DNA of 64,000 nucleotides from an uncultured Oxalobacteraceae bacterium. Its GTDB lineage: Bacteria; Pseudomonadota; Gammaproteobacteria; Burkholderiales; Burkholderiaceae_D. Position numbers and translations under genes: made by a program. Positions 13,881-44,988 of this stretch are shown in pieces; position 1 is the first letter of the stretch, and every line of letters begins with the position of its first letter. The notes under the pieces are model-generated. The model did no database searches. It saw nothing but the letters and a program-made list of their open reading frames with translations, and had not been told where the DNA came from. The stretch spans positions 4,095 through 68,094 of the forward strand of contig CBFGOU010000001.1 of the NCBI GenBank assembly GCA_965650445.1. The letters are read 5' to 3'.

Positions 13881-15239
13881 TTATTTCGCCAACAAATTAT
13901 TCACCGGCACCAGATCAGCTTCGCGCAGCGAACCGGCGGCCGCCTTCAGGCGCAGACCGTTGACGATGGTGTCGTAACGCGCCCGCGCCAGATCGCGGCG
14001 GGTCGAGTACAGCTGGCGCTGGGCGTTGAGCACGTCGATATTGATCCGCACGCCAACCTGGTATCCCAGCTTGTTCGATTCCAGCGCCGAGGTGCTGGAC
14101 ACTTCCGCCGCCTGCAGCGCCTTGACCTGCGCCAGGCCGCTATTGACGCCCAGGAAAGCCTGGCGCGCGCTCAGTGCGGCGTTGCGGCGCGTGCTCTCCA
14201 GATCCTGGCGGGCTTTTTCTTCCAGCGCGATGGTTTCGCGCACCCGGCTGGTCACGGCAAACCCGCTGAAGATCGGCACGTTCCACTGCACGCCGATCGC
14301 CTTGCTATCGGTCGTACCGGCACCGCTGAGCTGGCCGCTGACCTTGTTGCGGCTGGCGCTGGCGATCAGGTCCAGGGTCGGATAATGGCCGGCACGGCTC
14401 TTCTGGATTTCGCGCTTGGCCATTTCATAATTGAGCTGGGCGCTGGTCACGCCATAGTTCGCGCTTTCCGCCGACGACACCCACGGATCGATCACCGCAG
14501 GTTCGGGCGCGGCCAGCACCACGCTCGGCTTGAGCGGCGCCAGCCCGGACGGCGCGCTACCGATGATGGCCTGCAAGGCGCTGCGCTTGTTTTCCAGATC
14601 GTTCTGGGCGGCGTATTCCTGCGCCACCACCAGATCGTAGGCCGCTTGCGCCTCGTGGGTATCGGTAATGGTCTGGGTGCCGACTTCAAAGTTGCGCTTG
14701 GCCGATGCCAGCTGCTCGGTGGTGGCGGTCTTTTGGGCGCGGGTCAGTTCGAGCGTGTCCTGCGCGGCCAGCACGTCGAAGTACGCCTGCGCCACGCGGG
14801 TGATCAGGTCCTGCTGGGCCTGGGCGAAGGCGGCTTCGGCAGCGGCCGCCTGCAGCTTGCTCTGCTCGTAAGTCTGCCAGTTAGCCCAGCGGAACAGCGG
14901 CTGCACCAGCGAGATGGTGGCCTGGCTCGAATGGTTGTTCACGCTGCCGCCCAGGACGGTCGTGCTGGTGCCGTTCGGCAGCAGGATCGTCTGGCCCTCG
15001 TTGAACGGCGAGGAATCGGTATCGTTCTTGGTGTAATTACCGCTGGCCTGCACCGATGGCAGCAATTGCGAACGCCCCTGCGGTACCCGCTCGCGGCCTG
15101 CAGCCAGCGATGCGCGCGCACTGGCGTAGGCAGCGTCGTTGGCCAGCGCTTGCTGGTAGACCTGAATCAGGTCCGCGGCCTGTGCGTCCAGCGTCAGAAA
15201 AGCGCTGGCAATCAGCACGGCGAGTAGGGGTTTCTGCAT
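13881..15239 (-). CDS. tolC: TolC family outer membrane protein
   Basis: Signal peptide, ADLIQVYQQAL, VAQAYFDVL, YQVGVRINIDVLNAQ. Confidence 0.93.
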   Translation of the reverse strand: MQKPLLAVLIASAFLTLDAQAADLIQVYQQALANDAAYASARASLAAGRERVPQGRSQLLPSVQASGNYTKNDTDSSPFNEGQTILLPNGTSTTVLGGSVNNHSSQATISLVQPLFRWANWQTYEQSKLQAAAAEAAFAQAQQDLITRVAQAYFDVLAAQDTLELTRAQKTATTEQLASAKRNFEVGTQTITDTHEAQAAYDLVVAQEYAAQNDLENKRSALQAIIGSAPSGLAPLKPSVVLAAPEPAVIDPWVSSAESANYGVTSAQLNYEMAKREIQKSRAGHYPTLDLIASASRNKVSGQLSGAGTTDSKAIGVQWNVPIFSGFAVTSRVRETIALEEKARQDLESTRRNAALSARQAFLGVNSGLAQVKALQAAEVSSTSALESNKLGYQVGVRINIDVLNAQRQLYSTRRDLARARYDTIVNGLRLKAAAGSLREADLVPVNNLLAK

Positions 15240-15319
15240 TGCATTCTCCATCGGAGTCATCAAAAAAGTTAAGAAACAAAAAACCGAAGTGGTTCCAATC
15301 CCGCCGTACCGAGCCGCGC

Positions 15320-15653: not shown

Positions 15654-16307
15654 TCAGAACGTGAAGTGCGAAGGCTTGACCGCGGCCTTCAGGTATTTCA
15701 CATTGGTCTCGAACACTTTGACGGTGTCGTAGGCGGTCTCGGTCACGCGGGTAATGATCTGGGCCGACATGGCGGGCGCCTGGCCGATGATGGCGGCGAT
15801 GCGCCCGCCCACCTTCACCTGCTTGAGGAACGCTTCCGGCAGCACTTCGAGCGCGCCGGAAATGACGATCACGTCGTACGGCGCGCCGCGGCCGAAGCCT
15901 TCGGAGCCGTCGGCTTGTTCAACCGTGACATTGCTAACGCCGGCCTCGCTCAGATTCTTCTCGGCCATCGCCTTCAGTTCAGGCAGGATTTCGACGGTGG
16001 TCACGTGGCGTGCCTTGTGCGCCAGCAGCGCGGCCATATAGCCCGAGCCGGTGCCGATTTCCAGCACGTTTTCGTGCTTTTTAACGCCCACTTCCTGCAT
16101 GATGCGCGCTTCGAGCTTGGGCGTGAACATGGTTTCGCCGGCCGCCAGCGGAATTTCGGTATCGACAAAGGCCAGGTTTTGGTAGGCGGCGGGCACGAAT
16201 TGTTCGCGTTTGACCACCAGCAGCAGATCGAGCACATCCTGGTCGAGCACGTTCCATGGACGGATTTGCTGTTCGATCATGTTAAAACGGGCTTGTTCGA
16301 TATTCAT
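15654..16307 (-). CDS. pcm: protein-L-isoaspartate O-methyltransferase family
   Basis: ARFNMIEQQIRPW, VLEIGTGSGY, APYDVI. Confidence 0.92.
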   Translation of the reverse strand: MNIEQARFNMIEQQIRPWNVLDQDVLDLLLVVKREQFVPAAYQNLAFVDTEIPLAAGETMFTPKLEARIMQEVGVKKHENVLEIGTGSGYMAALLAHKARHVTTVEILPELKAMAEKNLSEAGVSNVTVEQADGSEGFGRGAPYDVIVISGALEVLPEAFLKQVKVGGRIAAIIGQAPAMSAQIITRVTETAYDTVKVFETNVKYLKAAVKPSHFTF

Positions 16308-16468: not shown

Positions 16469-17119
16469 TCACTGGGCCGGCGCCGGGTTGGCGACGATCC
16501 CGTGCAGGGTCACGTCGAGGAAGGTATTGATGTAGACGACAGGGTCGAGGTCGGGCACGCCGCAGACACCCTGCAAATGCTTCCAGGTCACCAGCATGAG
16601 CAGCGGCGCGATCAGCACGCTGACCATGGTGCTGACGTCCATGGGGCGGAATTCGCCGCGCTCGATGCCGCTTTTGAGCATGCCTTCGACCAGCACCGTC
16701 CAGCGCTGGATCACTTCCTCTTGGTAAAACTGGGCCAGATCGGGAAAATTGCCGGACTCGGCCATCATCAGCTTGACGATGCCGGACGCCTTGGTGCAGC
16801 CGAAGCTCTCCCACCAGCCGCTCATCACGCTGCGCAGCAGCTCGGCGCTGCCGCCTTCGAAGGCGGCCACTTCCAGCTCGACTTCGCCCAGGCGCGGCAC
16901 GATGTTTTCGCGCACCACGGCCTTGAACAGGTCTTCCTTGTTCTCGAAGTATAAGTACAGGGTGCCTTTGGACACCCCTGCCCGCTTGGCCACATCCTCC
17001 AGCCGCGTGGACGCGAAACCGCGCTCGACGAACAGGTCGAGGGCTGCAGTCAGCAATTCCTGCGGGCGCGCGTCTTTACGGCGTTCCCAGCGGCGCTTTA
17101 ACTCGAGTGGGCATTGCAT
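16469..17119 (-). CDS. TetR/AcrR family regulator
   Basis: GFASTRLEDVAKRAGVSKGTLYLYFENKEDLF HTH; heads the pcm-rhodanese-tolC operon. Confidence 0.95.
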   Translation of the reverse strand: MQCPLELKRRWERRKDARPQELLTAALDLFVERGFASTRLEDVAKRAGVSKGTLYLYFENKEDLFKAVVRENIVPRLGEVELEVAAFEGGSAELLRSVMSGWWESFGCTKASGIVKLMMAESGNFPDLAQFYQEEVIQRWTVLVEGMLKSGIERGEFRPMDVSTMVSVLIAPLLMLVTWKHLQGVCGVPDLDPVVYINTFLDVTLHGIVANPAPAQ

Positions 17120-17132: not shown

Positions 17133-17181
17133 TAACTTACTGGCGAGTCATTAATATAGACGCGCGGTTGAGCAGCGTCAA
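17133..17181 (-). promoter_or_regulatory. sigma70 promoter of tetR with adjacent imperfect inverted repeat (probable TetR operator)
   Basis: Minus strand TTGACG (17181-17176), 17-bp spacer, TATATT (17158-17153); imperfect IR TAACTTACTGGCGAGTCATTA at 17133-17153. Confidence 0.65.
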
Positions 17182-17191
17182 GCCAGTTCGT

Positions 17192-17272
17192 TGTTCCGTC
17201 CTAATAGAACCTCGAACAGAACAATAGAGCCTTGAATGGGTAAAAGCCGCCAAACAAAAGAATCGTGAATAG
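17192..17272 (+). repeat. tnsA-proximal transposon end with three TnsB-binding repeats
   Basis: CTAATAGAACCTCGAACAG (17201), ACAATAGAGCCTTGAATGG (17221), ACAAAAGAATCGTGAATAG (17254). Confidence 0.8.
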
Positions 17273-17395
17273 CTGATGACCATGTTTTTGCTGACCAGCA
17301 ACAGGGGCGAAGCACCGAGGATAGTCGGTTGACAAAGGAGATTTTGTGTCCATAAAATATCAATTAATAGAACTACTAACTACCGAGACTAGAGT

Positions 17396-17836
17396 ATGAG
17401 CCCGTTTTCGACGGCATTCCGAGAGTTGAGGGTATTCTGCGGCCGGCGCCAGGCAGACTTTGCCGAACAGCTGGGCTATGAGCAGAGCTACATCTCCGCC
17501 ATTGAATTAGGGACGAAAGGACCGCCGACAGAGGCGTTTATTGAGCGACTCGTCGAGCGCCTCAATCTCGACGACGGATGGGAAAGCCGCCTTCGAAACG
17601 CACTGGAAGAATCGCAGCGCAAGATCGTGCTTCCCAATGAGGCGAGCGAAAGCGTCTTCCGAATGTTCAACGAACTGCGACGCCAGCTTGAAACGCTTCA
17701 CCCCGCCCAGATCGAGCTGATGCAAATGGCTTTACGACTCCCCCAGTCGATGTCACAGCAACCGTCCAAAGCAACCTTTCCTCCTCGGCGACGGATCGCG
17801 CGTAGCAAGGAGACTGCGGATTCCACGCCTGAATGA
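17396..17836 (+). CDS. XRE-family HTH regulator at the head of the tns operon
   Basis: QADFAEQLGYEQSYISAIELGTKGP. Confidence 0.85.
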   Translation: MSPFSTAFRELRVFCGRRQADFAEQLGYEQSYISAIELGTKGPPTEAFIERLVERLNLDDGWESRLRNALEESQRKIVLPNEASESVFRMFNELRRQLETLHPAQIELMQMALRLPQSMSQQPSKATFPPRRRIARSKETADSTPE

Positions 17837-18011
17837 CCACAACCGCACGAGTTGCCCTTACAGTCGGCTGAAAGTTCCTCCAACACTGCCATAACCAGCG
17901 CTATATCTATAAAAGTAGAAGTTTATACGTCTAACGTTTGTATTTTTACAAACATTGCTCTATGATGAACATGGGGTTTTCAGCAATGATGCCGTAGAGA
18001 CGGGAGCGGCT

Positions 18012-19010
18012 ATGGCGGCAGCAACTTTGAGGAGCAATAGTGCTGAGTTCGACGAGTCGTCCGACCACTGGATTTTGCCAACTGAACCGACACCAAAGAG
18101 GCGTCGGCCGGCGGCAATGACCTATGCCAAGCTTCGCCAACGTATCCAGTTGGGGCACGGAACGGGGCACCGTGATCGATATCTGCCATGGCTGACTTTG
18201 CGCCGAAAAAATGTCTCGCCAAATTCGAATCAGGTGGTCTCGTGGATGCCGCCGCTGGGGCGTACCGCGCATTACTTCTCGGCAGGCGAGTATCACACCG
18301 CCTTGCTGCTGCTGTGGCTAGGGGTACACGACCTCCGGGAGCAATTTCCCCTTTGGCCCTCCCCACATCCCCACCCGCTTTACGGGTCGCCACTGCTCGC
18401 CGGCTCTTGCGATCGCTGGTCCGAGGGGTTGTTGGCAATTGCAACGAAGTCAGGGATCAAGCATGGCGTTGAAGTCGGAACGCGAGTGCCCTACGTTGCC
18501 AGCCTCGATTTGCTTGCGACAGTTTCGCTCCGGAGCGGGCCTGCGCTCATGGCCTTTTCTTCCAAGCCCATCGAAAAGGCGAATGCAAAGGTCTCATGGC
18601 GCACCCTCGAGCGTTTGGAACTTGAACGGCGTTACGCCGAAGAGATTGGCGCATCTTATTTCGTGTCGCATTCGGCCCTTATCCCACGCTTGACGGCTGG
18701 GCAACTGGAAAGCTGGTTGGATGCGTCGACACTTGCTTCGGCGCCTGAGCTTGCGTCCTATGTACCAAGCTTTGCCGAGTGCATAAACGCAACCTCGCGC
18801 GATCCGCTCAATGTAGCAGTCAAAGCGGCCGCGAGGAATCTGTCCCTCCCGCTGGATGTCGCTTGGTTTTTGTTCAGACACTGTTGCTGGACCCAGGCTA
18901 TCGACATTGATCCATCGAAACGCATCTTAACGTCGAAGGGGGCGATTCCGGGCGGCCGCCATTTGCGGCAACAGTTGCGCAAACGCCTTTTCGGGGAGAC
19001 CTGGGAATGA
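18012..19010 (+). CDS. tnsA: TnsA-like endonuclease (start uncertain, 17955-18117)
   Basis: GHGTGHRDRYLPWL, HYFSAGE, DLREQFPL, LDLL, TLERLELERRY. Confidence 0.85.
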   Translation: MAAATLRSNSAEFDESSDHWILPTEPTPKRRRPAAMTYAKLRQRIQLGHGTGHRDRYLPWLTLRRKNVSPNSNQVVSWMPPLGRTAHYFSAGEYHTALLLLWLGVHDLREQFPLWPSPHPHPLYGSPLLAGSCDRWSEGLLAIATKSGIKHGVEVGTRVPYVASLDLLATVSLRSGPALMAFSSKPIEKANAKVSWRTLERLELERRYAEEIGASYFVSHSALIPRLTAGQLESWLDASTLASAPELASYVPSFAECINATSRDPLNVAVKAAARNLSLPLDVAWFLFRHCCWTQAIDIDPSKRILTSKGAIPGGRHLRQQLRKRLFGETWE

Positions 19011-21412
19011 CCGCCACTACCATTGAAGTCGGAAGCGTCCTGATTGCAACGTCCGAAGCCTCTCCCTTTGTCGGCGGGCCCCATCGTGTCCTGCAGGTAG
19101 CGCAACGACTCGATCGCGTGCTGCTTATCCCTATTCCACTCGGCCCAAGGCTTACTGAAGGCAATAAGCTGGTGAGCTATTACGCCAAGGGATTCGTCTC
19201 AAAAAAGCTAAGCCTGCTAGAGCATTGGCTCGAAATGAAACATATACAGACGACGAGCATTGCTGTGCCAGATCATTGGTACATGAGCGACGAACAGCTT
19301 CGGCAGTTATCTCCGCCTACGTCCACGCACGGCAAAGATTCGCAAGACTCCATACGCTCCCCTCTTGAAATCAAACGCGACTTCAAGTGGATGCTGATTG
19401 CTCCGCTTATTCCTTCGGAGAACGGCCCGTCAGGACTTCGCCCACCGGATCTTGCGGGACTTGACTCGCTCGTGCGAAGCCGAGCGCGCGACGCCAAGGT
19501 TAGCCCGGGCCAGATATTTGACGCACTCCATCGCTTCTATGCGTTCGGTTGCGTCAAAAATGCATTGTTGCCGAACACGACTAACAAATCGGGGGCTCCG
19601 GGTACGCCGCGGCGAGCAAAAAACGGGGTGAAGCTCGGTAGAAAAAACGCGGCGGTTAAGGCCGGGCACATCGACCAGGCGGGTTTGGCGCTCACCGACA
19701 AGGATGTCCAAAATCTGGAGGATGGCTATGCGTCCTTTGTCATTCCTGGAACAACGGTCCCACAAGCGTTCTTGTCAATGAGCGCTGCGTTCTACAGCAA
19801 AGGGCATTCCATCAAGCACGGTTACGCGGTGCCCGAACTGTATGAGGCAAATGCGCGCCCCACAGAGCGCGAATTCCGGTATCACGGCGAACGCGGAAAG
19901 GATGCGCATGGAGCGGCTCGGCGGTTAATGGGGGAAGGAAAGTGGGCACGTGATTATCGTCCGCTAATCGGAACGGCCCGCGACGGCATCACAACAATTG
20001 GCCAGGTCGGCTCCATTGACGCGTCGCCTGTGGATGTGAACTTCGTCTCCTGTAGCGACCCTAGGCAAGCAATTGGCGTAGGACGGGGCATTTTCGTACG
20101 GGATGGGTGGCTCGGCCTTTACCTGGGATTTCACGTGACGCAGGACGGACTTGGCACCGACGACGCAAAGCTTGCAATTCTAAGGGCAGCTACCGACAAA
20201 TCCGCAACACTGAAGCGCTACGGACTCGACCTCCCGCCAGAAGATTTTCCGTCGATTTTCTTCTCGAAATACCTGTCGGACAATGGCGAGCTGCGTAGTC
20301 TGGACGGGATGCATTCTATCGTCGACCAGCTTACCTCTCGTATTGAATTTGTTGCCAGCGGCCGTGCCGATAGGAACAGTGCATCTGAATCCGGCCACCA
20401 CTCGCGGCACCGCGGTTTCGACCATCACTTTACGGGCTCTACAAAGGGGAAGGTAGCACAGCGCGGTGAGCCGCTGGCGATATCGAAAGCACTGATCACG
20501 AGGTTCGCGTATACGCGACTTCTGCTGCTATGGACACATTGGGCAAATACCAAACAACTACTGCCTCTTCACATGGTTCCTACCGAAATGCAGCGCGAAA
20601 TGTCGATGCAAGGAAAACCGATCGAACGAACCCGCATTGCGATTTACCGATGGGCCAAAGCAAATGGGTACGTGACCTGGAAGCCGATGGAAGCCAGCTT
20701 TCTGCGAGCCCACCTCTTGCCCAAATTTACCGCCAGCGTCCAGCGTGATGGCTTGGTATTGCACCGGCCGAACCCCGGTAAAGCAGTGGAGCTGATGCAT
20801 GGTGCGAGATTCAACCACGAGTATCTGGCGCTCTCCGGCATTATTCGGGACGCTGTAAAACGTGGCAAGAAGCATATTGAAGTCAGAGCGGACCCGGACG
20901 ACTTGAGTCAAATTCTCGTCGTTGACGGTAAGGGAATTCATATCATTCCTAATATAAAGGACGACATTCTCTTCATTCAGGAAGGTGGCGTCGCGGACCT
21001 TTGCGCGATCAATGACAAAGAGAAGCAGGACGGCGTACTTGCCGCCTCTCGAATCGATCAGGACGCCATTGAGCAGCAATCGTTCCGCAAGGAGGCGGAG
21101 GCGGAAGCGCACGAGGCCCAACAAGCTGCGGTGAGGCAATGGGGCCCCCAAGGCCGATCAAGCACAAAGCGTGAGGGTGTTCGCTTGGCGAAAAAGGTGG
21201 AGCAACGCAACCAGTACGACAACGAGGTGCGTCGCGCCGCTGAACAGCGTGCAGCGCCTGAGGAGGCCGCAGTGCCCGCTGCTATCCAGGAGGTCCACTC
21301 ACCCCTGCCAGATTCACCGGAACCACCTCACTCCGTATCGAACCGAGGCAACGAACTGATGGAAATGCGCATGCGCCGGCTCACAAGTTTTACCAGCGAA
21401 AGAAAGCATTAA
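19007..21412 (+). CDS. tnsB: TnsB-like DDE transposase
   Basis: IDASP, YLSDNGE, NSASES candidate DDE residues; DPDDLSQI C-terminal motif; ATGA coupling to tnsA. Confidence 0.8.
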   Translation: MTATTIEVGSVLIATSEASPFVGGPHRVLQVAQRLDRVLLIPIPLGPRLTEGNKLVSYYAKGFVSKKLSLLEHWLEMKHIQTTSIAVPDHWYMSDEQLRQLSPPTSTHGKDSQDSIRSPLEIKRDFKWMLIAPLIPSENGPSGLRPPDLAGLDSLVRSRARDAKVSPGQIFDALHRFYAFGCVKNALLPNTTNKSGAPGTPRRAKNGVKLGRKNAAVKAGHIDQAGLALTDKDVQNLEDGYASFVIPGTTVPQAFLSMSAAFYSKGHSIKHGYAVPELYEANARPTEREFRYHGERGKDAHGAARRLMGEGKWARDYRPLIGTARDGITTIGQVGSIDASPVDVNFVSCSDPRQAIGVGRGIFVRDGWLGLYLGFHVTQDGLGTDDAKLAILRAATDKSATLKRYGLDLPPEDFPSIFFSKYLSDNGELRSLDGMHSIVDQLTSRIEFVASGRADRNSASESGHHSRHRGFDHHFTGSTKGKVAQRGEPLAISKALITRFAYTRLLLLWTHWANTKQLLPLHMVPTEMQREMSMQGKPIERTRIAIYRWAKANGYVTWKPMEASFLRAHLLPKFTASVQRDGLVLHRPNPGKAVELMHGARFNHEYLALSGIIRDAVKRGKKHIEVRADPDDLSQILVVDGKGIHIIPNIKDDILFIQEGGVADLCAINDKEKQDGVLAASRIDQDAIEQQSFRKEAEAEAHEAQQAAVRQWGPQGRSSTKREGVRLAKKVEQRNQYDNEVRRAAEQRAAPEEAAVPAAIQEVHSPLPDSPEPPHSVSNRGNELMEMRMRRLTSFTSERKH

Positions 21413-22908
21413 TGAGTAGCGAACAACGCTTGCCACAATCGTCCTCCGACAACCCCTTCCTGGAGCCTCTTGAGACAATCCTGTCCACCGATAATTTGGA
21501 ATGGCGGCTGCAGAATAATCCACTTCAAAATGTGGACACTGCAGCACTAAGCATTCAAGCACGGCATGACTTACTTGATCGTCTGCCGGAACAGATGTTC
21601 GAGCCAACGATGTCGTCAATCGACACGGCTACGCGGCTCTACCGTCTTATTCGACGGGGATACGCGTCCAGGAATCCGACTGAAGTGGCAACGCGGGTTA
21701 ACGCTATGGCCATCGCCCGTTTCGCTGGGTTAGAGATGAGCAAGCTGCCTTGGCTGCCTAGTTCGGCCAAGGGAATGCGCATCATTGGAATAACCGGCCT
21801 CGGGAAGACGTATGAAGTTTTCCGCGCGCTATCTCAGCTACCGCAGAAAATTGCACACGGACGATCACCCAGTGCGGGCTGGACCCACATGATTCAAGCA
21901 ACTTGGCTATACGTTCCGATGAGTCATGACGGGTCGCTCGGCGGCCTGCTTCTTCAAATTCTCACATCGTTAGACGAAGTGATCGGAACCTCCTACAGCA
22001 GTAAAGGTGGATTTGCTAGCCTCAGCAATGAAAAACTGGCGGTTCACGTTGGGATCATTCTGAACAACCATGGCGTTGGCGTATTGGTCATCGACGAATT
22101 GCAGCATCGCAATTTTTCGGGCGGTTCCCGCGGCGGACTGGCCGCCACGTTCTTCCTGCGGCTGCTCAACTTTGGTGTTCCTATCGTTCTGATGGGGAAT
22201 CCAAAGGGAATGGACGCACTTGACGCCTTCTCACAAGACATGCGCCGTGTTGGCGCCGGTGGCAGCATCCATATGCATCCTCTGGAAAAAGATGAGTTCG
22301 ATTTTGCCAACATGCTGGCGCCGGCCCTATGGCGTTACAACGTGATGCCAGAACCATCGCCTGTGAACGATTTAGACGGCGCGATCCTGTTCAAATATTG
22401 CGGAGGCATACGCGATTACGCGGCGCGAATCCGCGTGTGCTCACAACGCCTTGCGCTCGACCTAAACAAACGCTTCGTCACAGAAGAGCACATGGAACAG
22501 GCGTTCATGGGCCCTGACTTCAGCCCCGGTGAACGCGCGCTGATAGCGGGCTTCCGAGATAAAAATCCTCTTCTGCTAAGCAAATTTGATGACATACCGT
22601 GGGAGGACTATGCGGCCAAGTGGGGGCTGCTCCCATCAGGTGAAGGCGCCAGTTGTGGTGACCTGCCGAAGCCGGTTTCTACCCCGCCTGTCACGGCAGT
22701 GAAAATACGCAAGCCGGTAGCACAGGTGGCGGCGGCGGCCGCAAAACGAAAGCGCACGCGAAAGGCAAATCAAGACGCCGACAACACCGCGTTAAGGGAA
22801 ACGCTGGATTCGGAGGATATCCGAAACGACGGACTTAAGGACTACCTCATCAGCTCGATAAATGCTCTAAGGGACAGCGATCACGCTGCTGCACCAGAAC
22901 GTCTTTAG
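21412..22908 (+). CDS. tnsC: TnsC-like AAA+ ATPase
   Basis: NPFLEPL, Walker A GITGLGKT, Walker B VLVIDELQH, VPIVLMG. Confidence 0.9.
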   Translation: MSSEQRLPQSSSDNPFLEPLETILSTDNLEWRLQNNPLQNVDTAALSIQARHDLLDRLPEQMFEPTMSSIDTATRLYRLIRRGYASRNPTEVATRVNAMAIARFAGLEMSKLPWLPSSAKGMRIIGITGLGKTYEVFRALSQLPQKIAHGRSPSAGWTHMIQATWLYVPMSHDGSLGGLLLQILTSLDEVIGTSYSSKGGFASLSNEKLAVHVGIILNNHGVGVLVIDELQHRNFSGGSRGGLAATFFLRLLNFGVPIVLMGNPKGMDALDAFSQDMRRVGAGGSIHMHPLEKDEFDFANMLAPALWRYNVMPEPSPVNDLDGAILFKYCGGIRDYAARIRVCSQRLALDLNKRFVTEEHMEQAFMGPDFSPGERALIAGFRDKNPLLLSKFDDIPWEDYAAKWGLLPSGEGASCGDLPKPVSTPPVTAVKIRKPVAQVAAAAAKRKRTRKANQDADNTALRETLDSEDIRNDGLKDYLISSINALRDSDHAAAPERL

Positions 22909-22916
22909 GAACAACG

Positions 22917-24701
22917 ATGCTCAATACTACGGATAATTCGTCCAATACAATGCTGCCGTATTTCCCCGCGGGCTTTCCCGACGAGACCATAGGATCTCGA
23001 ATCAGCCGCTACCATATTCTTCGTGGTCAGCCGACTATTCAAACAACGTACGGACAGCTGTTCGATCGACTCCCGTTCAGTTCAAATGCAATGGTGCACC
23101 CGCATCTTGACAGGCTCGCCAAAAAGCTCCCGGGGTCGGCTGCGCACAACCTGATGACGCTGCACGCGGAGAGTACTCTCGGTCCGCTTTTCCAACGTTT
23201 TGCCGGCACAAGGCTCGATAGCACGACCACCGTGAGAGGGAACGATGCGCCGCTCCCTAGTCGCCCCAGGCGAATCCGTGGAGACAGCCGCCTCACGCAC
23301 ATCTGCGCACAATGCTTGCGGGATGATCAAACGTCGCTTGGCTCGCCCTATATCCACAGATCCCACCAGATACCCGGTGTCACATCTTGCTGGCGCCACG
23401 AAACTCGGCTGCTTGACCGGTGCCCATTCTGCCGGTGCCCGTTCGCACGGCCAAATGAACTGATTCTTTCCGCATGGCTGGGATGCGCATGTGGCTCATC
23501 CATCGCCGAGCATGTGCCAACCGAGCCATGGAGTCCTTCGGAAATCGAGAGGGAATTCGCAGAGTTCACAAGACAGCTCCTGGCCTCCGAAACGGTTCCT
23601 CTATCCGCGAGACAGCTCGTCGCCATCTACAAGCACAGGGCGCTTGAACTTGGCTATGGGTGGGGCGACCAGAAGATTAACCGCAAGCGGTTATTTGACC
23701 ATCTCGAAAAATTCTTCGGCGAGGCCCTGCTGGGGAAGATGGACCCGGCCTACGGGAAGGGAAAAACGAGCGGCTGGTTTCACCTACTGACACCAAGCTC
23801 CAGTCAAGAAACCCCTTTGAACAGGCATCTTATATTTGTATATTTTCTATTCCGCGATCCGTCGCTTTTCTTATCCCGCTCCGTTGCTGCCGCCAATACT
23901 GATCTCAGCATGTTCGCTGACACTCACGCTAGCGATCCCAATGTTCAGAAGGGTGTCGTTGGCGACACGCAGCCAAATGATCCTGCCCAAGTCCTCTTTG
24001 CCGAACTGACCGAGGCCGCTCAGCGTTTTGGCTATGACACTCAGCAATTGTGGCAATACCATTTCAGCGCCATGAAACGACTGGTGAAACTGATGCCAGA
24101 GGCGAGCACAGTGCTGGATGCTTATTTTCGAAAGACCAAAGAGAAGGAAGTGCGCACAGCGCTAGCAGCCTTCAAATCGCGCGAACGACTACGCCGAACC
24201 GACGTCAAGTGGTCGGACGAAATCACCGCGACGGCGCCTCGCCTTATCTGGAAGGATATAAGGCCGGTAAAGATTACCAAGCATCAGCTTCTCAACGGCG
24301 GATCCATCAAGCAAGCTACCTGGCCGGTACCATCGAAATACCCGTTGACCTGCGTCGCACTCAACCAGAAAGCAGAATCGATGTGGCATTTTTATGCGCG
24401 GCGAATGCTCTGGACCTTGCAAGCGTTGAACGATCCACACACGCCAGCGCACAAGATAATTATCCTGGCGGCGCTCGAGGTTAATAAAGCGCGAGCGGTC
24501 CTCGCGTTCTTTTCCGACGCGCCTCGCGGGGGTGGGACTTCCATGGAAATAATCAGGGCAATACTGAAAGGCAGGGGTATCGGTACGGACTGGAAGGGAC
24601 CGTGCCCAGAGCAGGAGTTCTACCGGGCCGGGAGGGCCTACAAATTGCGAACCTCACGCTGGGGTCCAATTGGTGGAAAAGCAGGGGATACCGACAAATA
24701 G
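22917..24701 (+). CDS. tniQ: TniQ/TnsD target selector (long, 594 aa)
   Basis: PDETIGSRISRY, CAQC...HRSHQIPGVTSCWRH, CPFC, CACG zinc motifs. Confidence 0.85.
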   Translation: MLNTTDNSSNTMLPYFPAGFPDETIGSRISRYHILRGQPTIQTTYGQLFDRLPFSSNAMVHPHLDRLAKKLPGSAAHNLMTLHAESTLGPLFQRFAGTRLDSTTTVRGNDAPLPSRPRRIRGDSRLTHICAQCLRDDQTSLGSPYIHRSHQIPGVTSCWRHETRLLDRCPFCRCPFARPNELILSAWLGCACGSSIAEHVPTEPWSPSEIEREFAEFTRQLLASETVPLSARQLVAIYKHRALELGYGWGDQKINRKRLFDHLEKFFGEALLGKMDPAYGKGKTSGWFHLLTPSSSQETPLNRHLIFVYFLFRDPSLFLSRSVAAANTDLSMFADTHASDPNVQKGVVGDTQPNDPAQVLFAELTEAAQRFGYDTQQLWQYHFSAMKRLVKLMPEASTVLDAYFRKTKEKEVRTALAAFKSRERLRRTDVKWSDEITATAPRLIWKDIRPVKITKHQLLNGGSIKQATWPVPSKYPLTCVALNQKAESMWHFYARRMLWTLQALNDPHTPAHKIIILAALEVNKARAVLAFFSDAPRGGGTSMEIIRAILKGRGIGTDWKGPCPEQEFYRAGRAYKLRTSRWGPIGGKAGDTDK

Positions 24702-24719: not shown

Positions 24720-25919
24720 ATGTTGATAACCCGCCTACCCATTCCGTATACCGACGAAACGCTCTACAGCGTTGCAGCGAGGACGCGCCGTGCAAATGCG
24801 GCAAGAGATGATCGCGACGCATGCCGAAGCCTGTTTGGTCCGTCACGAACGATGCGCGTGTCAGAGTTCCCGGTGAATCTTCTGCACTTTTGCGCTGCCA
24901 CGAATGGAATGCTTGGCAATCCGCTAGAGGTCCTTGACGCGATGACGGTGACAGGGTTCTATGATCGGGTGGGAGGTCGGCCATGGCGAACTGGCAGTTC
25001 GTGCATTCCCGCAATAACAGCAGGATATGCCTTATCGACTCTATCCAACGGCACCCTTTGGCTGTGGCGAGCATGTGCACAATGTGTGAAATCGGACCGC
25101 GCCATCCATGCGACAGCGTATTGGCGGCGAGCACATCAACTACCGACTTCATTTTTCTGCGTGCTACACAATGCGCCACTGAGCGCATCGGTGGCAGCTG
25201 TGAAAGAACGCCACAACCGATTTCTTCTTCCCGACGAAACGCGACTCGACGACACGTATGCGCCCCTCGCACGGACCAAGGATGACGAAGCGCTAATGCG
25301 GCTGACCACGCTAGCGGTTGATGTCCTGCAACATATTGGTGCCCCGGTCAACGCGACAGCAGTGCATGCAACCATACTTCGTGCACTCGACAATCGCGCA
25401 CTGCTGACGGCTTCCGGCGCTATCCGTCAAGAGCCATTTGCCAGGGAATTCTTTCGACACTACGGATTCTTGAATCAACATCCGGAGTTTGCTTCTGCAG
25501 TGTCAATTACCGGCATCAATATCCTTGCGCGAAGCCTCCGGGGCGTCAATGCATGGAGATCGGCCACGCACAATATCCTGCTCATCGATTGGTTGTTCGG
25601 TTCCTGGCCGGCGTTCCTTGACCAATGCTATTGGCAATCGGTGATGGATTACCCGGGCGAAGAAACGGAACTGGCTTTGCTCTCAAATCCGCAGACGCAA
25701 ATTTGGTGGAAGACGCAGAAAAGCGTTGATCTATCAGAGAAACATGCCCATCGGCGGGCTTGTTTGGATTTTCTGAGCAAGCAAACACCCGCCCTGCGAA
25801 ATGTCTTCGCTCGCACTGCGCCCAAATCGTTCAGGTGGTTACTACGATACGATCCGGAATGGTTGGACCAGCATTGCCCGACTGCAGTAAGCCGCCCGGT
25901 CCAGGCCGAACTTTTTTGA
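24720..25919 (+). CDS. tniQ: second TniQ/TnsD-like protein (399 aa)
   Basis: PYTDETLYS, CAQC...YWRRAHQLP...CVLH; TnsD-like C-terminal WLLRYDPEWL. Confidence 0.85.
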   Translation: MLITRLPIPYTDETLYSVAARTRRANAARDDRDACRSLFGPSRTMRVSEFPVNLLHFCAATNGMLGNPLEVLDAMTVTGFYDRVGGRPWRTGSSCIPAITAGYALSTLSNGTLWLWRACAQCVKSDRAIHATAYWRRAHQLPTSFFCVLHNAPLSASVAAVKERHNRFLLPDETRLDDTYAPLARTKDDEALMRLTTLAVDVLQHIGAPVNATAVHATILRALDNRALLTASGAIRQEPFAREFFRHYGFLNQHPEFASAVSITGINILARSLRGVNAWRSATHNILLIDWLFGSWPAFLDQCYWQSVMDYPGEETELALLSNPQTQIWWKTQKSVDLSEKHAHRRACLDFLSKQTPALRNVFARTAPKSFRWLLRYDPEWLDQHCPTAVSRPVQAELF

Positions 25920-26539: not shown

Positions 26540-26861
26540 TTACGCTTGGCAAAACCAAGTCGTTGAGGTCCTGCTCTCCACTTGGTTAATGGCTATGCTT
26601 CGTCGCCAGCTCATGCTCGGCGCACCGCCTGCTGTCCTCCGGCCATCGTGGCCGAACTTGCCGTGTTAGCGACCTAACGGTCACTGTGGAGCGACTGCTC
26701 TCCCCACTTCCTACAGACAAGCAAATCCGGCGGTCAAAGCTACACATGGCGCCCCCTCGAGCGCAAGTCAAGGAATTTTTGATATGCTGTGCTTCCTTGT
26801 CGCCCGGAGGGCCAGCATTCACGCCATCGCCGACCCAACAGAGCCTTCTAAGAGTCAAGAA

Positions 26862-29800
26862 TTGAGCAAATTGCCCGGGAAACCTGCAGATCATACTGGC
26901 GGAAATCCGTCGTTGGACGGCTGGCACTACCAATGTGACGTATCCGTGTTTGCGGCGCTGGATCTGCTGGTGGTCAACCGTGTCGCCAAGGTGCTTCAGC
27001 TCGAGCCTGCGACACAGGAAGACCTGGAGGCGGAGCTTGAAGTCCCGCAGGTTTCGTCATCGGCTGTCGTGGACGGCGAACGCCTCGTCGTCCAAGCCAA
27101 ATTGCGTCGTACCGGCCAATGGACGCCCGCCTCACTGCGCGACTTGGTGGAGCACGGGGAGAAGCGCCCGTCCGCATTGAAGTTGTTGGAGGACACGAAG
27201 GTCCGGTACGTGCTGTTCACTAGTGCCGACGTGTCGGGAACGCTCGGTGCGCTGCAGGTCGATGCCCTGCTGGAGCGCCCCGGCGGCGACGACCTGCCGG
27301 CTGATGTGTTCCCGCCCACGCTCGTCCAAGCGGCGGCAGGCCGGTTCGCGGTGCTGGCTCAATACAACGAGGCGCGCGTTGTCGAGAAGATCGACGCTTA
27401 CTTACTTAGTCCTCTGAGCATCCCGAGAGAGCGCCACGAAGCCTGTCGCGAAGATCTCCGCAAAGCCGCAATGGCGGGGATGCGAATAGGCTACGCCTGG
27501 CCCAGGGGTGATGTGGAAGCCATTATCAAGATGCATGGTGGCTCCATCCCGTCTGAGCGCGACCGCAAGTTTGTCCCGCCCACGAACTGGGGCGACATCG
27601 TTGCCCAGATGGACAAGCGCAACGCCATCGTCATCACAGGGCCGTCGGGCACGGGCAAGACCACCGTGGCCAAGGCTCTCTACCAACACTACCGTAGCGT
27701 CGTGCCTGGGATCAGCTATGTGGAACCTGGAGGTCCTGGCGAGCTGAAGGTTCGGCCAGACGCCGGCCCTACCTTCTTCTACGTGGAAGATCCGTGGGGC
27801 AAGTATGAGATTGGCACCAACACGGCGGTATGGACAGTTGAGCTGGAGGAGCGGCTGCTGAAGGCCAGTGCCCAGCAGAAGATCGTGGTCACCAGCCGTA
27901 CCGATATCCTCGCCGCGACCGTCGGAAGTCAGAGCGACTTCCTCAAGCAGTGGGAAGTGCGGCTGGAGGCCAAGCACTACGGCGACAAGGAGCTGGGTAG
28001 GATGTACGAGGAGCTCGTCCGCCTCCTCGGCTCCAGTATCTTGCAGCTGGCAGCCATCCGTGCCAGGGAACGCGTCCTGCAAACGTTGCGGACCCCCTTC
28101 GAGATTGACCGCTTTGTGGCACTGCTGCAAGCCGGGGCTATCCCTGCCGACGAGAACGAAGACCAGTTCGTGTCGCGGATCCTGCACGAAACCCAAACCC
28201 GCGCCATCGAAAACGAGGTCGAGTTGATGGTGAAGGCGCGCCATTACGAGAAGGCAGCAGTGGTGCTGTGGGGTCTGATGAGCACCCGACATGGCGTGCG
28301 TCGCCAAGACTTGCCAACCATCCGGCGAGCCATCAGCAAGCTGGATCCGGCATTCGGCCCTGGGTTAGAAAGGCTCGTGAACGATCTAGTGGCCGGCGGC
28401 AGTCTGCGCCAGCCTAGCAGCGACGTCACGTATACCCACCCCCGTGTGGAGCAAGGCCTCATCCGTGTGGTGCGAGCCAACCCTGAGGTGACAGAAGTCA
28501 CCCTGGAACACCTGCTGACGGCTCTCGTCCGCATGGGCAACACTGGGAACACCCAGGCCGTTGAGACAGCAGTGCGACTCCACGCTTTCATCAAGGATTC
28601 CGACCAGTCCCTGTACGAGGTATCTCATGAAGTCCAACTCACCATCGACATTTGGCTGGAGGACGCGCTCAGCAAGGACCACGACGACTACGTTGGCCTG
28701 CTGCGCCTAGCCTGCATCGCCGGCTCCCGCGCATGCATCCCCGCTGAAGTCGCCCGGTGGTTGCGCCCTGTGACCACCGGCAAGCATTTCTTTATGCGCG
28801 ATTGGAAGCTCAGCAAACGCAGCGACGAATGGTACATGACGGTCCGCAACCATCCGCTCACGCAAGATGTTTGCGAGCGCTTCATTCGACTCGGCCTCAC
28901 CGTGGGCACCCGAGGCTATCCCGGCCGAATGGCCGAATACCTCGATACCATTGCATCGGGTCTGGATGCCGCTTGGCTAGACGCGGCGAAGATGATCGTT
29001 CATCGCGGCGAAGAAACCAATGCGATCACTGTCGGGTTCGGTGCCATGCGGGCCATCGAGAACCGCGAACCGCTGCTGCAACTCGCGCTCGCCGCACTCC
29101 GCGAGGAGGTTGAGGCGCTAAAGACGTACTCAGATCCCGAGCACTGGCCATTTATTGACGGCCACTACAACGGCGACTGGGAGCCTCTCGACGGCCACAC
29201 CGACTACTACTACGCCGCACGCGAACTGGTCTCTGCGTTCGCGGAGGCGACCCGTCGCGACTCGGGGTGGCACGCGCTTGCCGAACACAAGGATGCGCGC
29301 GCACTTGCCAGTGAGTGGTTTGATGCCATGGAAAAGGCCTCGGGCGCAGATGCCGGCGATGATGAGTTGCGGCGTCTGCTGGAACTGGGTAAAGGGGAAT
29401 ACCTTGAGCAGCGAATCTGGCGACTTTTGACGGAGAGGTGGCGCCCATCCTTCGTGGTCTCCCTCCGCGAGCGACTGCTTTCTGGCGACGAATCAGCGCA
29501 TCTGCGCGAAGTCGCAGCGCGCTGTGCCTTGGAACACGCGCCGGACTTGTTGACCGAAGTGGCCAAGGAGCTTTTTGATAAAGGCCAGACGGTACGGTTG
29601 CTGGAACTGGCGCACGACGCCAAAACCCACACTAAGCGCTTCGGCGTCAGGGGTAGCCAACACCTGGCCTACGATGCGTTCGAGCTGCGCCTGCCGGCGC
29701 CCTTCGGGGAGCTTGCGGCGGCGTTCGCGCCGTTGGACGATATCCAGGAAGTGCAACTCACCGACGCTTCACTGGATGGGTTGATTCCTCTGCTCGGAAA

Positions 29801-30836
29801 GCACCAGGGGCCTCTCCGTCCCCTGCTGATCTGGCTCGCCGCGACGAATGGGCGAGCCACGGAAGCCGTGCTGGAAGAAGCATTGCGTGAATCCTTGCTG
29901 GCAGAGGAGGCAGACCTGACTGTTCGCGCCGCCGCTGCGGCGGGTTGCTGGAGGCTGGTGAGGTCAGCCTTGACCCACCCGCGTGCGAAAGCCCGCCAGC
30001 GTGCGCTGAATCTCTTCGCTGCTTCGGAGCATGGGATCATAGATGACATCGTTGCCCTGGCGAACGACCCCAGCGCATTCGTCCGGCGTTCGCTACTGGA
30101 TTTGTTGGCGAAGCAGCCCGAACGCCACGCCGCTGCCCTGGTGAAGTTGTGCGAAGACACGTGGTCTTATGACTCAGTTCCAGCGGGTGAGGCTCAGAAC
30201 TTCCCTCTCGCTCAAGTCGCCGCTCGGGCGCTGGCCACGTTGACGTCCGTGCCACCTGAGCTGACCGGCGCCATCGTCGAGGCTGCCCTGGAGACGGATG
30301 ACGTGACCGTCACCGAAGTACTGCTGGACTTGCTGGTCGAACGTGGTGACGAAGATGCGTTGCGCGAAGTGATCAACCTCGTCTTCACTTTCAAACCAAC
30401 TTGGGCCAGTGTGCAGGCGGCCTCAACGATCGCTCGGACTAAGCGCAACTTGCCTGCTGAAGGCCTGAAAAAGGCCGACCCGCACTGGCTGGGCAAATCG
30501 AACCCCTACCTGGCAGCCCAGACGGTCGAGGCTGTGGGCAGCATCGCGGACAGCACGCAGGTCCTTGCTGTGGCCAAGTCACTTGCAATCAGCGAAGATC
30601 GGCGGGTTCTTTTGATCCCCCTGGCCATCGGGGCTGAACGCCAGTCGGTTGAACTCGCCAACGAGGTGCTCAGCAAACTGCCGCCTGATCATCCGGCCAT
30701 CCAAGTCCTTGACACGTCGAAGCATCCGCTTCCTCATGACGCGCTGGATCAGCTCGGCAATGCGCGCACCGTGGAAGCCGTCCACTGGCTGCTCGGTGAC
30801 CGCATCGCCGAGCGTCCATCAGTCTTGGTACAGTAA
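26862..30836 (+). CDS. PD-(D/E)xK nuclease + nSTAND3-type NTPase + HEAT-like repeats (Avs/STAND-like defence protein); start uncertain (26784-26871)
   Basis: GWHYQ...EPATQEDLE...VQAK nuclease pattern; GPSGTGKT; FFYVEDPWG; IVVTSR; helical C-terminus with DPSAFVRR. Confidence 0.7.
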   Translation: MSKLPGKPADHTGGNPSLDGWHYQCDVSVFAALDLLVVNRVAKVLQLEPATQEDLEAELEVPQVSSSAVVDGERLVVQAKLRRTGQWTPASLRDLVEHGEKRPSALKLLEDTKVRYVLFTSADVSGTLGALQVDALLERPGGDDLPADVFPPTLVQAAAGRFAVLAQYNEARVVEKIDAYLLSPLSIPRERHEACREDLRKAAMAGMRIGYAWPRGDVEAIIKMHGGSIPSERDRKFVPPTNWGDIVAQMDKRNAIVITGPSGTGKTTVAKALYQHYRSVVPGISYVEPGGPGELKVRPDAGPTFFYVEDPWGKYEIGTNTAVWTVELEERLLKASAQQKIVVTSRTDILAATVGSQSDFLKQWEVRLEAKHYGDKELGRMYEELVRLLGSSILQLAAIRARERVLQTLRTPFEIDRFVALLQAGAIPADENEDQFVSRILHETQTRAIENEVELMVKARHYEKAAVVLWGLMSTRHGVRRQDLPTIRRAISKLDPAFGPGLERLVNDLVAGGSLRQPSSDVTYTHPRVEQGLIRVVRANPEVTEVTLEHLLTALVRMGNTGNTQAVETAVRLHAFIKDSDQSLYEVSHEVQLTIDIWLEDALSKDHDDYVGLLRLACIAGSRACIPAEVARWLRPVTTGKHFFMRDWKLSKRSDEWYMTVRNHPLTQDVCERFIRLGLTVGTRGYPGRMAEYLDTIASGLDAAWLDAAKMIVHRGEETNAITVGFGAMRAIENREPLLQLALAALREEVEALKTYSDPEHWPFIDGHYNGDWEPLDGHTDYYYAARELVSAFAEATRRDSGWHALAEHKDARALASEWFDAMEKASGADAGDDELRRLLELGKGEYLEQRIWRLLTERWRPSFVVSLRERLLSGDESAHLREVAARCALEHAPDLLTEVAKELFDKGQTVRLLELAHDAKTHTKRFGVRGSQHLAYDAFELRLPAPFGELAAAFAPLDDIQEVQLTDASLDGLIPLLGKHQGPLRPLLIWLAATNGRATEAVLEEALRESLLAEEADLTVRAAAAAGCWRLVRSALTHPRAKARQRALNLFAASEHGIIDDIVALANDPSAFVRRSLLDLLAKQPERHAAALVKLCEDTWSYDSVPAGEAQNFPLAQVAARALATLTSVPPELTGAIVEAALETDDVTVTEVLLDLLVERGDEDALREVINLVFTFKPTWASVQAASTIARTKRNLPAEGLKKADPHWLGKSNPYLAAQTVEAVGSIADSTQVLAVAKSLAISEDRRVLLIPLAIGAERQSVELANEVLSKLPPDHPAIQVLDTSKHPLPHDALDQLGNARTVEAVHWLLGDRIAERPSVLVQ

Positions 30837-31184
30837 AAGCAATGCCGGCATCGTAGGAGCCACGCAACTCAACGCGAAACATGCTCAGGTGCTGCGGCAA
30901 AACCTGGGGCACCTCCCCGCGCCCCAGTGGCCACATCCAAGGACTGCACCACCGATGCCCCCAGCCGTCGCGTCAAACATGGTCGGTTGTCACCATGATA
31001 GGCGCTATGTTCTCTCCCCGAAATTGGTCTGCCGTCATATTGACGATGTTATCGCCGCGCTGCAACCAGACATGGGATTTTTTTCATATGTTCGCCGCAC
31101 CTTCCGGTCAGTGGTTCAAATCCGGCTTCTCCTTGCTCCATGATTTGATTCCAGCTTTCCGGTAGCCAGAGCCTTCGCTTCCCC

Positions 31185-31612
31185 TCTTCCAGGAGGCGGC
31201 GGAATTTGAGCAGCGTCGTCGCGTCGGGCGCCGAATCATGGGTGAGGTCGACGCCGACAAAATTACGGACCGGGACGATGTCGTAAATCGCATCCTCGAT
31301 ACCCTCGTCCGACAGCCCGAGACATTGCTGGGCGATGTACATGCGCAGCATGCGTTCCAGACCGATCGGCGGCCGACCGCGGCCATCCCCGGCCGGATAG
31401 TAAGGCAGCAGCGCGGCAACCAACGCGGGCCAAGGCGTGGCCGCTTCGTTCTCGGCGAGGAAGCGCTCTCGCCGCGTCGGCTTCTTCTTGTTGGCGAACT
31501 CGACGTCCGAAAAGCTGGTTTGTTTCATCGTCGCGGGACAAAAAATGGATGCGTGATTGTGCCACTTCGCTTGGGTGACCGGTGGTGGATCGACGATTAA
31601 ATCAGTGCTTCC
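31185..31612 (-). pseudogene. truncated IS5-family element (one end plus transposase N-terminus)
   Basis: MKQTSFSDVEF...PDATTLLKFRRLLE then diverges; end GGAAGCACTGATTTAA at 31612. Confidence 0.85.
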
Positions 31613-31616
31613 CTAG

Positions 31617-32830
31617 GGAAGCGCTGAACAATTCACTTTCGGGCGCGAAAGTGACCTGAACTGTCCGCAGAATTTGGCACACGCGTTTTCTGATCGAATC
31701 GAACGTGCACGGGTGGCAAATTTGGCCGATTCGGTCAGGTGTTTTTCCCGCTTTCCGACCTCAGGACGCAATCTGGGTGTACTGTCGTCTCAGGAATCTG
31801 CGCGCCAGAACCAGATTGGCGAATCCAAACAGCGTGAACAGCTGCGCGGTGTTTTTGGCCAAGCCGCGATAGCGCGTCTTGCGATGCTTGAACAGGCACT
31901 TCACGACATGGAAGCAATGCTCAACTTTGGCGCGCACGCTGGCCTTCGCCTTCTCCAACTTTTCCTGCGCACGGCCAAGGGAATTTTTGGTGAGTGTCTT
32001 GCGCAGCCCGGGCCGCATGGCAGTGTGCCAGTCGACCTGCTTGCCCGCGTTCTCGGGGCGCTTGGCAACACCTTGATAACCGGCGTCTCCCAGCACTGCC
32101 TTCTCGCCTCCGTGCAGCAGCGCGTGCGCTTGCGTCACGTCGGCCACGTTGCCGGCTGTGCCAACCACCGTGTGCACCAGGCCGGTGGCCATGTCCACAC
32201 CCACGTGCGCCTTCATCCCAAAATGCCAATCGTTGCCCTTCTTCGACTGGTGCATTTCCGGATCGCGCTCACCGTCGCGGTTCTTGGTCGATGGCGGCGC
32301 CGCGATCAGCGTCGCGTCAACGATCGTCCCTTCGCGCATCATCAAGCCCTTGCCAGCCAAGTGGCCGTTGATTTCATCGAAGATCCGGCGCGTCAGTTTG
32401 TGCTGCTCCAGCAGTCGGCGGAACTTCAACAGCGTCGTCGCGTCCGGTGCCGATTCGTGTGTCAGGTCAACGCCGACAAAGCCACGAATCGCCTGGCTGT
32501 CATAGATCGCGTCTTCAATGCCCTCGTCCGAAAGCCCAAAGCATTGTTGGACGATATACATGCGCAGCATCCGCTCCAAACCGACCGGCGGACGGCCGCG
32601 TCCATCGCCCTTCGGGTAGTACGGCAACAGTGCAGCAACCAACGCCGGCCATGGCGTCACCGCTTCGATCTCGGCCAAAAACCGGTCGCGCCGCGTCACC
32701 TTCTTCTTACCGGCAAACTCGGCTTCGGAAAAACTCGCTTGCTTCATGATGGGCACGAAAAATTTGGATGCACTATTGTGCCAGTTCAGCCTACCCCGAT
32801 GGGGCGTCGAATGAATAAATCAGCGGTTCC
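31617..32830 (-). mobile_element. IS5-family insertion sequence, 1214 bp
   Basis: IRs GGAAGCGCTGAACAATTC and GGAACCGCTGATTTATTC; CTAG duplicated at 31613-31616 and 32831-32834. Confidence 0.93.
31761..32756 (-). CDS. IS5-family transposase
   Basis: IVDAT, GMKAHVGVD, GDAGY, RAKVEH. Confidence 0.95.
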   Translation of the reverse strand: MPIMKQASFSEAEFAGKKKVTRRDRFLAEIEAVTPWPALVAALLPYYPKGDGRGRPPVGLERMLRMYIVQQCFGLSDEGIEDAIYDSQAIRGFVGVDLTHESAPDATTLLKFRRLLEQHKLTRRIFDEINGHLAGKGLMMREGTIVDATLIAAPPSTKNRDGERDPEMHQSKKGNDWHFGMKAHVGVDMATGLVHTVVGTAGNVADVTQAHALLHGGEKAVLGDAGYQGVAKRPENAGKQVDWHTAMRPGLRKTLTKNSLGRAQEKLEKAKASVRAKVEHCFHVVKCLFKHRKTRYRGLAKNTAQLFTLFGFANLVLARRFLRRQYTQIAS

Positions 32831-33008
32831 CTAGGGCGAGGATCTTTGGCATGCCTGACACTTGTCTTGAAAAAAAGTGTTAAGCAGGGACGCTCCGCTT
32901 GTAACGGTTGACATGATATTTGAGACTAGCTGGGCAAAAAGTGAAAATTAGTGAGCATCTGTTAGGAAAAACGGTCGATAATCTTCCATCTTTCCAACGG
33001 GATACGCG

Positions 33009-35417: not shown

Positions 35418-35439
35418 TCAATCTGCACAAGGAATTTAA

Positions 35440-35940: not shown

Positions 35941-35970
35941 TCTGCTGACGTTTGTGATTCAGGAATCCAT

Positions 35971-38326: not shown

Positions 38327-38369
38327 CTCTCTTGCTCATCAAACAATTATGATCGAAGTGTGTAGCTGA

Positions 38370-39243: not shown

Positions 39244-39245
39244 AA

Positions 39246-44985: not shown

Positions 44986-44988
44986 GTG

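Follow-up and report, generated by a model that had tools for sequence, protein, structure and literature searches.

The question raised by this locus is what a Tn7-like transposon recognises when it has come to rest directly upstream of the promoter of a transcriptional repressor rather than at the 3' end of a gene or a tRNA. The window, meaning the whole stretch of 64,000 nucleotides from an uncultured Oxalobacteraceae bacterium that was analysed, holds a 43-kb Tn7-like element (17192-60371) with the gene order xre-tnsABC-tniQ1-tniQ2, and the features on which the argument rests are the following.

13881..15263, minus strand: TolC-like outer-membrane efflux protein, host operon (Pfam OEP)
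15654..16307, minus strand: pcm, protein-L-isoaspartate methyltransferase, host operon (Pfam PCMT)
16469..17119, minus strand: TetR/AcrR-family regulator, its promoter taken as the attachment site (Pfam TetR_N, TetR_C_11)
17133..17154: imperfect palindrome at +56 to +35 from the duplication centre, a putative TetR operator; relatives keep it in both their occupied and their empty sites
17153..17158, minus strand: tetR -10 box TATATT
17176..17181, minus strand: tetR -35 box TTGACG
17187..17191, plus strand: target-site duplication TTCGT, promoter-side copy, read in the sequence
17192..17272, plus strand: tnsA-proximal end, with TGT terminus, two adjacent repeats resembling TnsB sites (cores 17203 and 17223) and a degenerate third
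17329..17358, plus strand: internal sigma70-type promoter ahead of xre-tnsABC, kept in homologous elements
17396..17836, plus strand: XRE-family regulator (Pfam HTH_31/HTH_3)
17955..19010, plus strand: tnsA (Pfam Tn7_TnsA-like_N weak, E 5e-4, below the cut-off; homolog annotated TnsA)
19007..21412, plus strand: tnsB transposase (Pfam Mu-transpos_C; HTH_TnsB in homologs)
21412..22908, plus strand: tnsC AAA+ ATPase (Pfam AAA_22; TniB weak)
22917..24701, plus strand: TniQ1, 594 aa, TnsD-like, proposed promoter/operator selector (Pfam TniQ and TnsD)
24720..25919, plus strand: TniQ2, 399 aa, ending QAELF, proposed second-pathway selector
26784..59971: cargo, largely defence-like (STAND NTPase, PDC-S06-like AAA_13 protein, PIN, RmrA-like, WYL, and MukB/MukF/JetD-like, Wadjet-like, proteins)
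60344..60371, minus strand: far end, inverted partner of 17192-17219
60372..60376, plus strand: target-site duplication TTCGT, far copy, read in the sequence

The element opens with TGT at 17192 and closes with ACA ending at 60371, TTCGT abutting both termini on the outside. The termini form inverted repeats identical at 21 of 28 positions, and among the 111,222 28-mers starting with TGT in the whole 5.76-Mb assembly the 60371 end is the best partner for the 17192 terminus, the runner-up agreeing at 19/28. The tetR promoter, on the minus strand, matches the consensus at 10 of 12 positions, and the promoter scan found 2 sites against 0.4 expected in shuffled sequence. An earlier note on this DNA had placed the duplication 5 bp upstream of the -35 box with the core promoter intact and the tnsA-proximal end facing tetR, all of which holds: 17182-17186 are the five bases in between, setting the element end, with the 5-bp duplication added, 10 bp upstream of the -35 box; TTGACG, a 17-bp spacer and TATATT lie intact beyond the duplication; and tnsA (17955) stands at the tetR side behind xre. 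The same note had equated the TnsD site of Tn7 with the tetR -10/operator region, and the Tn7 TnsD footprint (+23 to +58) transposed to this locus indeed falls on 17166-17131, spanning both the -10 box and the palindrome at 17133-17154. From its position and symmetry this palindrome is a putative TetR operator, and it is likely the core of the TniQ1 site.

Reuse of the tetR promoter by related elements turns the single insertion into a site. Close TniQ1 homologs were gathered from proteins, genomes and metagenomes, and elements with a TniQ1 39-57% identical to that of the window gave 15 tetR-promoter junctions in several genera, the hosts of the relatives being assigned by inference to Massilia, Collimonas, Janthinobacterium and Undibacterium. 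Across these 15 junctions 10-15 bp (sd 1.7) separate the element end from the -35 edge, and 48-53 bp separate it from the centre of the operator palindrome; the distance of the end to a fixed tetR codon is 100-155 bp, or 100-114 without G292, in which the leader is about 50 bp longer and the insertion site stays put relative to the promoter. The tnsA end points towards the promoter in 13 of the 13 junctions that retain tns genes. The homologous elements are therefore not strewn over unrelated loci, an outcome that would have spoken against the proposal, nor do they keep a fixed distance to a gene on the other flank, the far flanks being unrelated from genome to genome. The proposal had also been cast in terms of tetR-pcm-tolC, of which the tetR promoter stands and pcm-tolC does not: tetR is followed by an RND pump in L098, pcm lies 5 kb away in L083, and these neighbours, taken with the ArsR branch described below, indicate that the constant is the repressor promoter/operator and not the operon.

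The junctions also record separate insertion events. Five-bp duplications of differing sequence flank the elements of the window, G249, G083 and G134, where both ends lie on one contig, and of G292, G329 and G230, where they lie on separate contigs. Near-identical elements sit at different offsets (12 in G230, 10 in G159 and G249), and near-identical promoters carry different elements (offset 12 in G010, 10 in L191), which together with the differing duplications points to independent insertions, albeit in hosts that are kin. Of 29 congeners of the host, 12 have a recognisable transposon end at 7-13 bp from the -35 box; the background rate of the same patterns is 0.3-0.7%. A promoter/operator-anchored attachment site is thus very probably real, as the earlier note had suspected when it favoured a promoter or operator over a gene 3' end or a tRNA; how a TniQ would read that site, directly or by way of bound TetR as the note also allowed, is weighed below.

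Two other anchors were considered and ruled out, one on the far flank, since far flanks share nothing between genomes, and one on the tetR coding sequence, against which G292 counts most and G329, G083 and G130 to a lesser degree. The far flank of the window itself, 60585-63989, resembles that of no relative seen. Away from tetR lie two ends of the Janthinobacterium group (L235, L236); ends were not located in the more distant elements L086, L115-L122, L186, L201 and L202; the contigs of P0020, P0033, P0021 and P0027 stop before the element end; and an IS-like sequence interrupts the element end in L114 and L185. The single-protein scan returned one distant match from genome contigs and none from viral contigs. 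Apparent duplications of 6 bp in G010 (L220/L225) and 7 bp in G002 (L221/L226) may have arisen as chimeras between insertions whose offsets differ, and an extra TGT stands before the end at L106:928 and L113:2418-2421, as if a new element had entered 3 bp into an older end.

The spot is shared with a second family of ends, built on a different 21-bp repeat and mostly starting CGT, not TGT, which accounts for seven of the 12 occupied congeners, the first family accounting for five. Second-family ends occur at the tetR site of G026, G034, G003, G016, G035, G004, G022 and G281, and in G159 one follows a first-family element; loci with such ends are L005, L006, L008, L014, L015, L021, L024, L270 and L271. 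A mini-element of G004 (L039:924-4642) has CGT...ACG termini and a 5-bp duplication. The transposase of this CGT-ended family was sought and not found; either two colonisations of the tetR site took place, or a related selector has been paired with a different TnsB.

A switch of target within the family separates the promoter/operator from the identity of the gene behind it. Five junctions (G134, L111, L265, L108, L109) sit before an ArsR/SmtB gene, followed in G134, L111 and L265 by a cation-efflux gene, the contigs of L108 and L109 ending earlier. In these five the element end lies 10-13 bp from a -35-like box and 47-50 bp from the centre of an inverted repeat of the 12-2-12 type, the kind bound by SmtB/ArsR repressors (PMC8790569), and the distance to the coding anchor varies little, at 105-111. 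The tetR and ArsR palindromes, aligned at their centres, have TGA-N8-TCA in common, tetR often showing T for G in one arm, and the operator centre lies 37-39 bp from the -35 edge in 19 of 19 junctions. ArsR-type TniQ1s group in a single clade (SH-aLRT 100) that falls within the tetR types, and a tetR-only clade is rejected in quick trees of TniQ1 (AU p 0.024) and TnsC (0.039). The ArsR site of L265 was predicted beforehand from the TniQ1 tree and confirmed on look-up, and among the elements seen no ArsR-clade member is at tetR and no tetR-type member at ArsR. In G134, which carries the ArsR insertion, the tetR promoter has a normal -35 and -10, a degenerate operator and no recognisable end. 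In genus g46 (L267, L269) the tetR operator has diverged while -35 and -10 persist, and one such host carries an ArsR-targeting element. Three ArsR-clade elements (L100, L101, L107) lie off-site: nothing there resembles an operator or a -35 box at the proper spacing, and two of the three are surrounded by short genes that lack annotation. Further out, the end of the outgroup element L113 (TniQ1 39%) lies just past the stop codon of an ammonium transporter gene (amtB-like, L113:2421), and the more distant ends L124:1320 and L234:1501 just past that of sodB (Fe/Mn superoxide dismutase), making these two 3' ends candidate further attachment sites. With few outgroups mapped, promoter targeting looks to have been derived from ordinary 3'-end targeting.

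The switch coincides with a change at one end of one protein. Residues 13-328 of TniQ1 match the fold of Tn7 TnsD (E. coli TnsD 1-318; Z 21.7, rmsd 3.4, 283 residues aligned), and beyond this part further helical domains are predicted, residues past about 430 having barely entered the fold search; a single-sequence fold of the C-terminal part, at pLDDT 38, was too poor for use. Near the C-terminus a conserved Arg/Gly stretch (residues 577-591, about 24645-24689) carries the motif LRTxRRGPIGG within the last 18 residues. The motif is present in 35 proteins of the tetR-type group, including every full-length TniQ1 from a tetR junction, and is altered only by a frameshift in L080; in 0 of 8 ArsR-clade TniQ1s is it found, these stopping or diverging right before it. 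Whole-domain divergence does not single out TniQ1, only its tail does: the tail divides the tetR and ArsR groups most sharply, and TnsA, TnsB, TnsC and TniQ2 hold no comparable region. The ArsR branch is the derived one and has lost the tail. In Tn7, TnsD binds +23 to +58, and removal of about 10 C-terminal residues abolishes its DNA binding (PMC2918618). The frameshift in L080 (13759-16737, G249) lies inside the tail and joins TniQ1 and TniQ2 in one frame of 992 aa.

The TnsD fold, the tail, the precedent of the Tn7 TnsD C-terminus and a shortened TniQ2 in L191 together point to TniQ1 as the protein behind the attachment pathway; the favoured mode, with a confidence somewhat better than even, is that it reads operator/-10 DNA directly. 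Through its C-terminal domains and tail, TniQ1 would make sequence-specific contact with the operator/-10 part of the tetR promoter and load TnsC over the spacer and -35 region; TnsAB would then place the element, tnsA end promoterward, at 10-15 bp upstream of the -35 box, duplicating 5 bp and leaving the core promoter whole. Conserved by the host for its own repressor and sigma70, this non-coding site would be a safe harbour much as the glmS coding sequence is for Tn7. In one lineage TniQ1 would have lost the tail and become tuned to ArsR/SmtB operators, which have the TGA-N8-TCA core in common with the tetR site and nearly the same -35 spacing.

With operator, -10 and -35 at constant distances from one another, the genomes cannot tell DNA reading from repressor- or polymerase-assisted reading, and both of the latter have to be weighed. 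The operator is presumably occupied by its own repressor much of the time, and TniQ1 might dock on that bound protein, the tail being a docking peptide replaced at the ArsR switch. Palindromic operators ahead of repressor genes in both target classes would suit such docking; the tail, conserved yet with pLDDT under 50 for most of residues 576-594, as docking peptides often are, could be such a peptide; and a precedent is offered by the Tn5053 family, reported to sense resolvase-occupied res sites (PMC11406308). Yet TetR and ArsR belong to unrelated families and the spacing still agrees within 1-2 bp, the switch is easier to picture on a common TGA-N8-TCA core of DNA, and TniQ1 is a full-length TnsD-type protein with helical DNA-binding-like domains of its own, while partner-dependent TniQs are typically short (PMC10293859), so docking is regarded as unlikely. 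A predicted complex of a TetR dimer with TniQ1 352-594 scored 0.00 and is uninformative either way. It is likewise improbable that sigma70 RNA polymerase, or its open complex, positions the targeting complex with operator bases only adding specificity. Strictly common to both target classes are only the -35, a 17-18 bp spacer and the -10; the element end always lies just upstream of the -35 box; and a host complex marking the spot might account for the presence there of a second end family with unrelated repeats. Sigma70 promoters by the thousand nonetheless go unused, the intact -35 and -10 of the G134 tetR promoter have drawn no recognisable end where the operator is degenerate, and, reasoning from Tn7 geometry, TnsC would have to load where polymerase sits.

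That TniQ2, or a TniQ1-TniQ2 pair, selects the site has little going for it beyond the company the two proteins keep: they travel together, both genes being present in all elements seen, and are fused by the frameshift in L080. A subclade without the last ~90 TniQ2 residues is still at tetR (L191), the ArsR branch has no specific TniQ2 change comparable to the TniQ1 tail, and the QxxLF end of TniQ2 points to a different job. Least credible, and already largely refuted, is an untargeted origin, whether an old insertion inherited, random insertion followed by selection, or recognition of the tetR 5' coding region. The hosts are related and kin are not independent, and the coding anchor of the ArsR class is nearly constant, both of which would suit it; against it stand the duplications and offsets that differ among near-identical elements, the different elements in near-identical promoters, the unmoved site behind the longer leader of G292, and the excess of end-like motifs among the 29 congeners over background. 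RNA-guided homing was ruled out separately, there being no array-like repeats and a longest element-target match of 14 nt; no cas families were found among the cargo proteins scanned, which were part of the ORFs.

The QAELF end of TniQ2 (about 25902-25916, plus strand) agrees at the key positions 1, 4 and 5 with the beta-clamp motif QL[S/D]LF (PMC3919608), and 37 of 44 full-length TniQ2 homologs end Q-x-x-L-(F/L/W), most others being near variants. The frequency of such ends among long host ORFs is 0.3%, and no member of the TniQ1 set has one; the subclade lacking the last ~90 residues, with a TniQ2 of 307 aa in L191, lacks the motif as well. Tn7 reaches replicating DNA via TnsE and the beta-clamp (PMC12153342). 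It is plausible at the level of the motif that TniQ2 provides a second, TnsE-like pathway linked to replication and the clamp, and the clamp-motif-like tail probably serves it. The TnsE profile PF18623 had no match in the assembly and none in the control genomes.

In every feature tested the element is Tn7-like and dual-TniQ, and it is not Tn7, a CAST or of the Tn5053 type. Its tnsABC and TniQ genes form an operon, its TGT...ACA ends carry repeated TnsB sites, 5-bp duplications are seen in the window and six relatives, and insertion is specific in orientation and distance. With Tn7 TnsABC+D it shares a TnsD-fold selector, the TGT/ACA ends, the 5-bp duplication, a recognised interval of about +23 to +58, and a fixed orientation in which the end with closely spaced repeats faces the recognised site. 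Tn7, however, reads the coding 3' end of glmS and inserts downstream (PMC2918618), whereas the junctions here lie at tetR and ArsR promoters and not at a glmS 3' end, the site being non-coding promoter/operator DNA with insertion upstream; there are two TniQs, and the spacing spreads over ~6 bp where Tn7-like glmS insertion is tighter, with 11/12 at one position. The dual TniQ-TnsD elements (PMC10293859; Tn7017/parE and the tRNA-homing I-B2 and I-D elements, PMC11406308) also have a long and a shorter TniQ in tandem, 594 and 399 aa here and conserved in homologs, and presumably two pathways. Their attachment sites are genes (glmS, parE, comM, yhiN, tRNA, guaC/yciA/ffs/rsmJ; PMC10293859, PMC11406308), and, unlike in these elements, no Cas array was found here and the shorter TniQ has a clamp-motif-like C-terminus and no evident partner gene. 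The Tn5053/Tn402 res hunters resemble the present family in aiming at protein-binding regulatory DNA, not coding sequence, but Tn5053 has one TniQ, lacks TnsA, is replicative and enters plasmid res sites (PMC11406308), while here there are TnsA, a long TnsD and a chromosomal repressor promoter. The QxxLF end of TniQ2 recalls the TnsE pathway, though TniQ2 is a TniQ-family protein and not TnsE, so that the likeness would be one of motif.

Protein-guided attachment sites of Tn7-like elements are given in the review and survey cited here as genes or tRNAs, save the Tn5053 res sites (PMC10293859, PMC11406308). No report of a promoter- or operator-, TetR- or ArsR-anchored Tn7-like site, and none of a TniQ with a clamp motif, was found in the literature covered, which includes few subscription papers. 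A promoter/operator anchor solves the safe-harbour problem in another way, and one may ask how some 40 bp of DNA can accommodate TnsD, repressor and RNA polymerase. In the tetR-to-ArsR switch, retargeting has taken place naturally between close relatives (TniQ1 45-50% identical) and is tied to a 15-residue tail, which makes the question of how TnsDs gain new specificities directly testable. Targeting of the tetR site would explain why the locus is a hotspot of defence and metal-resistance islands in these bacteria, and, Tn7-like elements being relevant to genome engineering, the site is a candidate neutral integration site, and the element a tool, for Massilia, Janthinobacterium, Collimonas and Undibacterium. 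A bolder and tentative reading, possible though doubtful as a whole, is that a TnsD-like clade left gene 3' ends for the operators of self-repressors and hops between repressor families, that occupancy by repressor or polymerase gates insertion so that an inducer (an efflux-pump inducer, zinc or cadmium) times the landing, and that TniQ2 independently gained a clamp-binding motif and takes the place of TnsE.

Several observations on the surroundings may be added. The same assembly holds a second, distant TniQ1 homolog (35%) at C8:22389-24044, and no close match to tnsABC lies in its vicinity. Across the tetR operon from the element, 4258-10269 (plus strand) encodes a protein of 2003 aa that combines calcineurin-like phosphoesterase, iHD-CE and wHTH-Hsp90 domains. 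Past the far duplication, the bases 60377-60392 open TGTTCC like the element's own end, 6-9 bases agreeing, and could be the decayed remnant of an earlier end with the same offset; beyond them, 60585-63989 contains a PEP-utiliser/PPDK-like gene and an acyl-carrier-like ORF with an AT-rich leader. Within the cargo, the MukF-, MukB- and JetD-like genes of the Wadjet-like cluster (51639-57899, minus strand) stand beside the WYL protein, and adjoining the cluster is a perfect palindrome of 44 bp (57888-57931).
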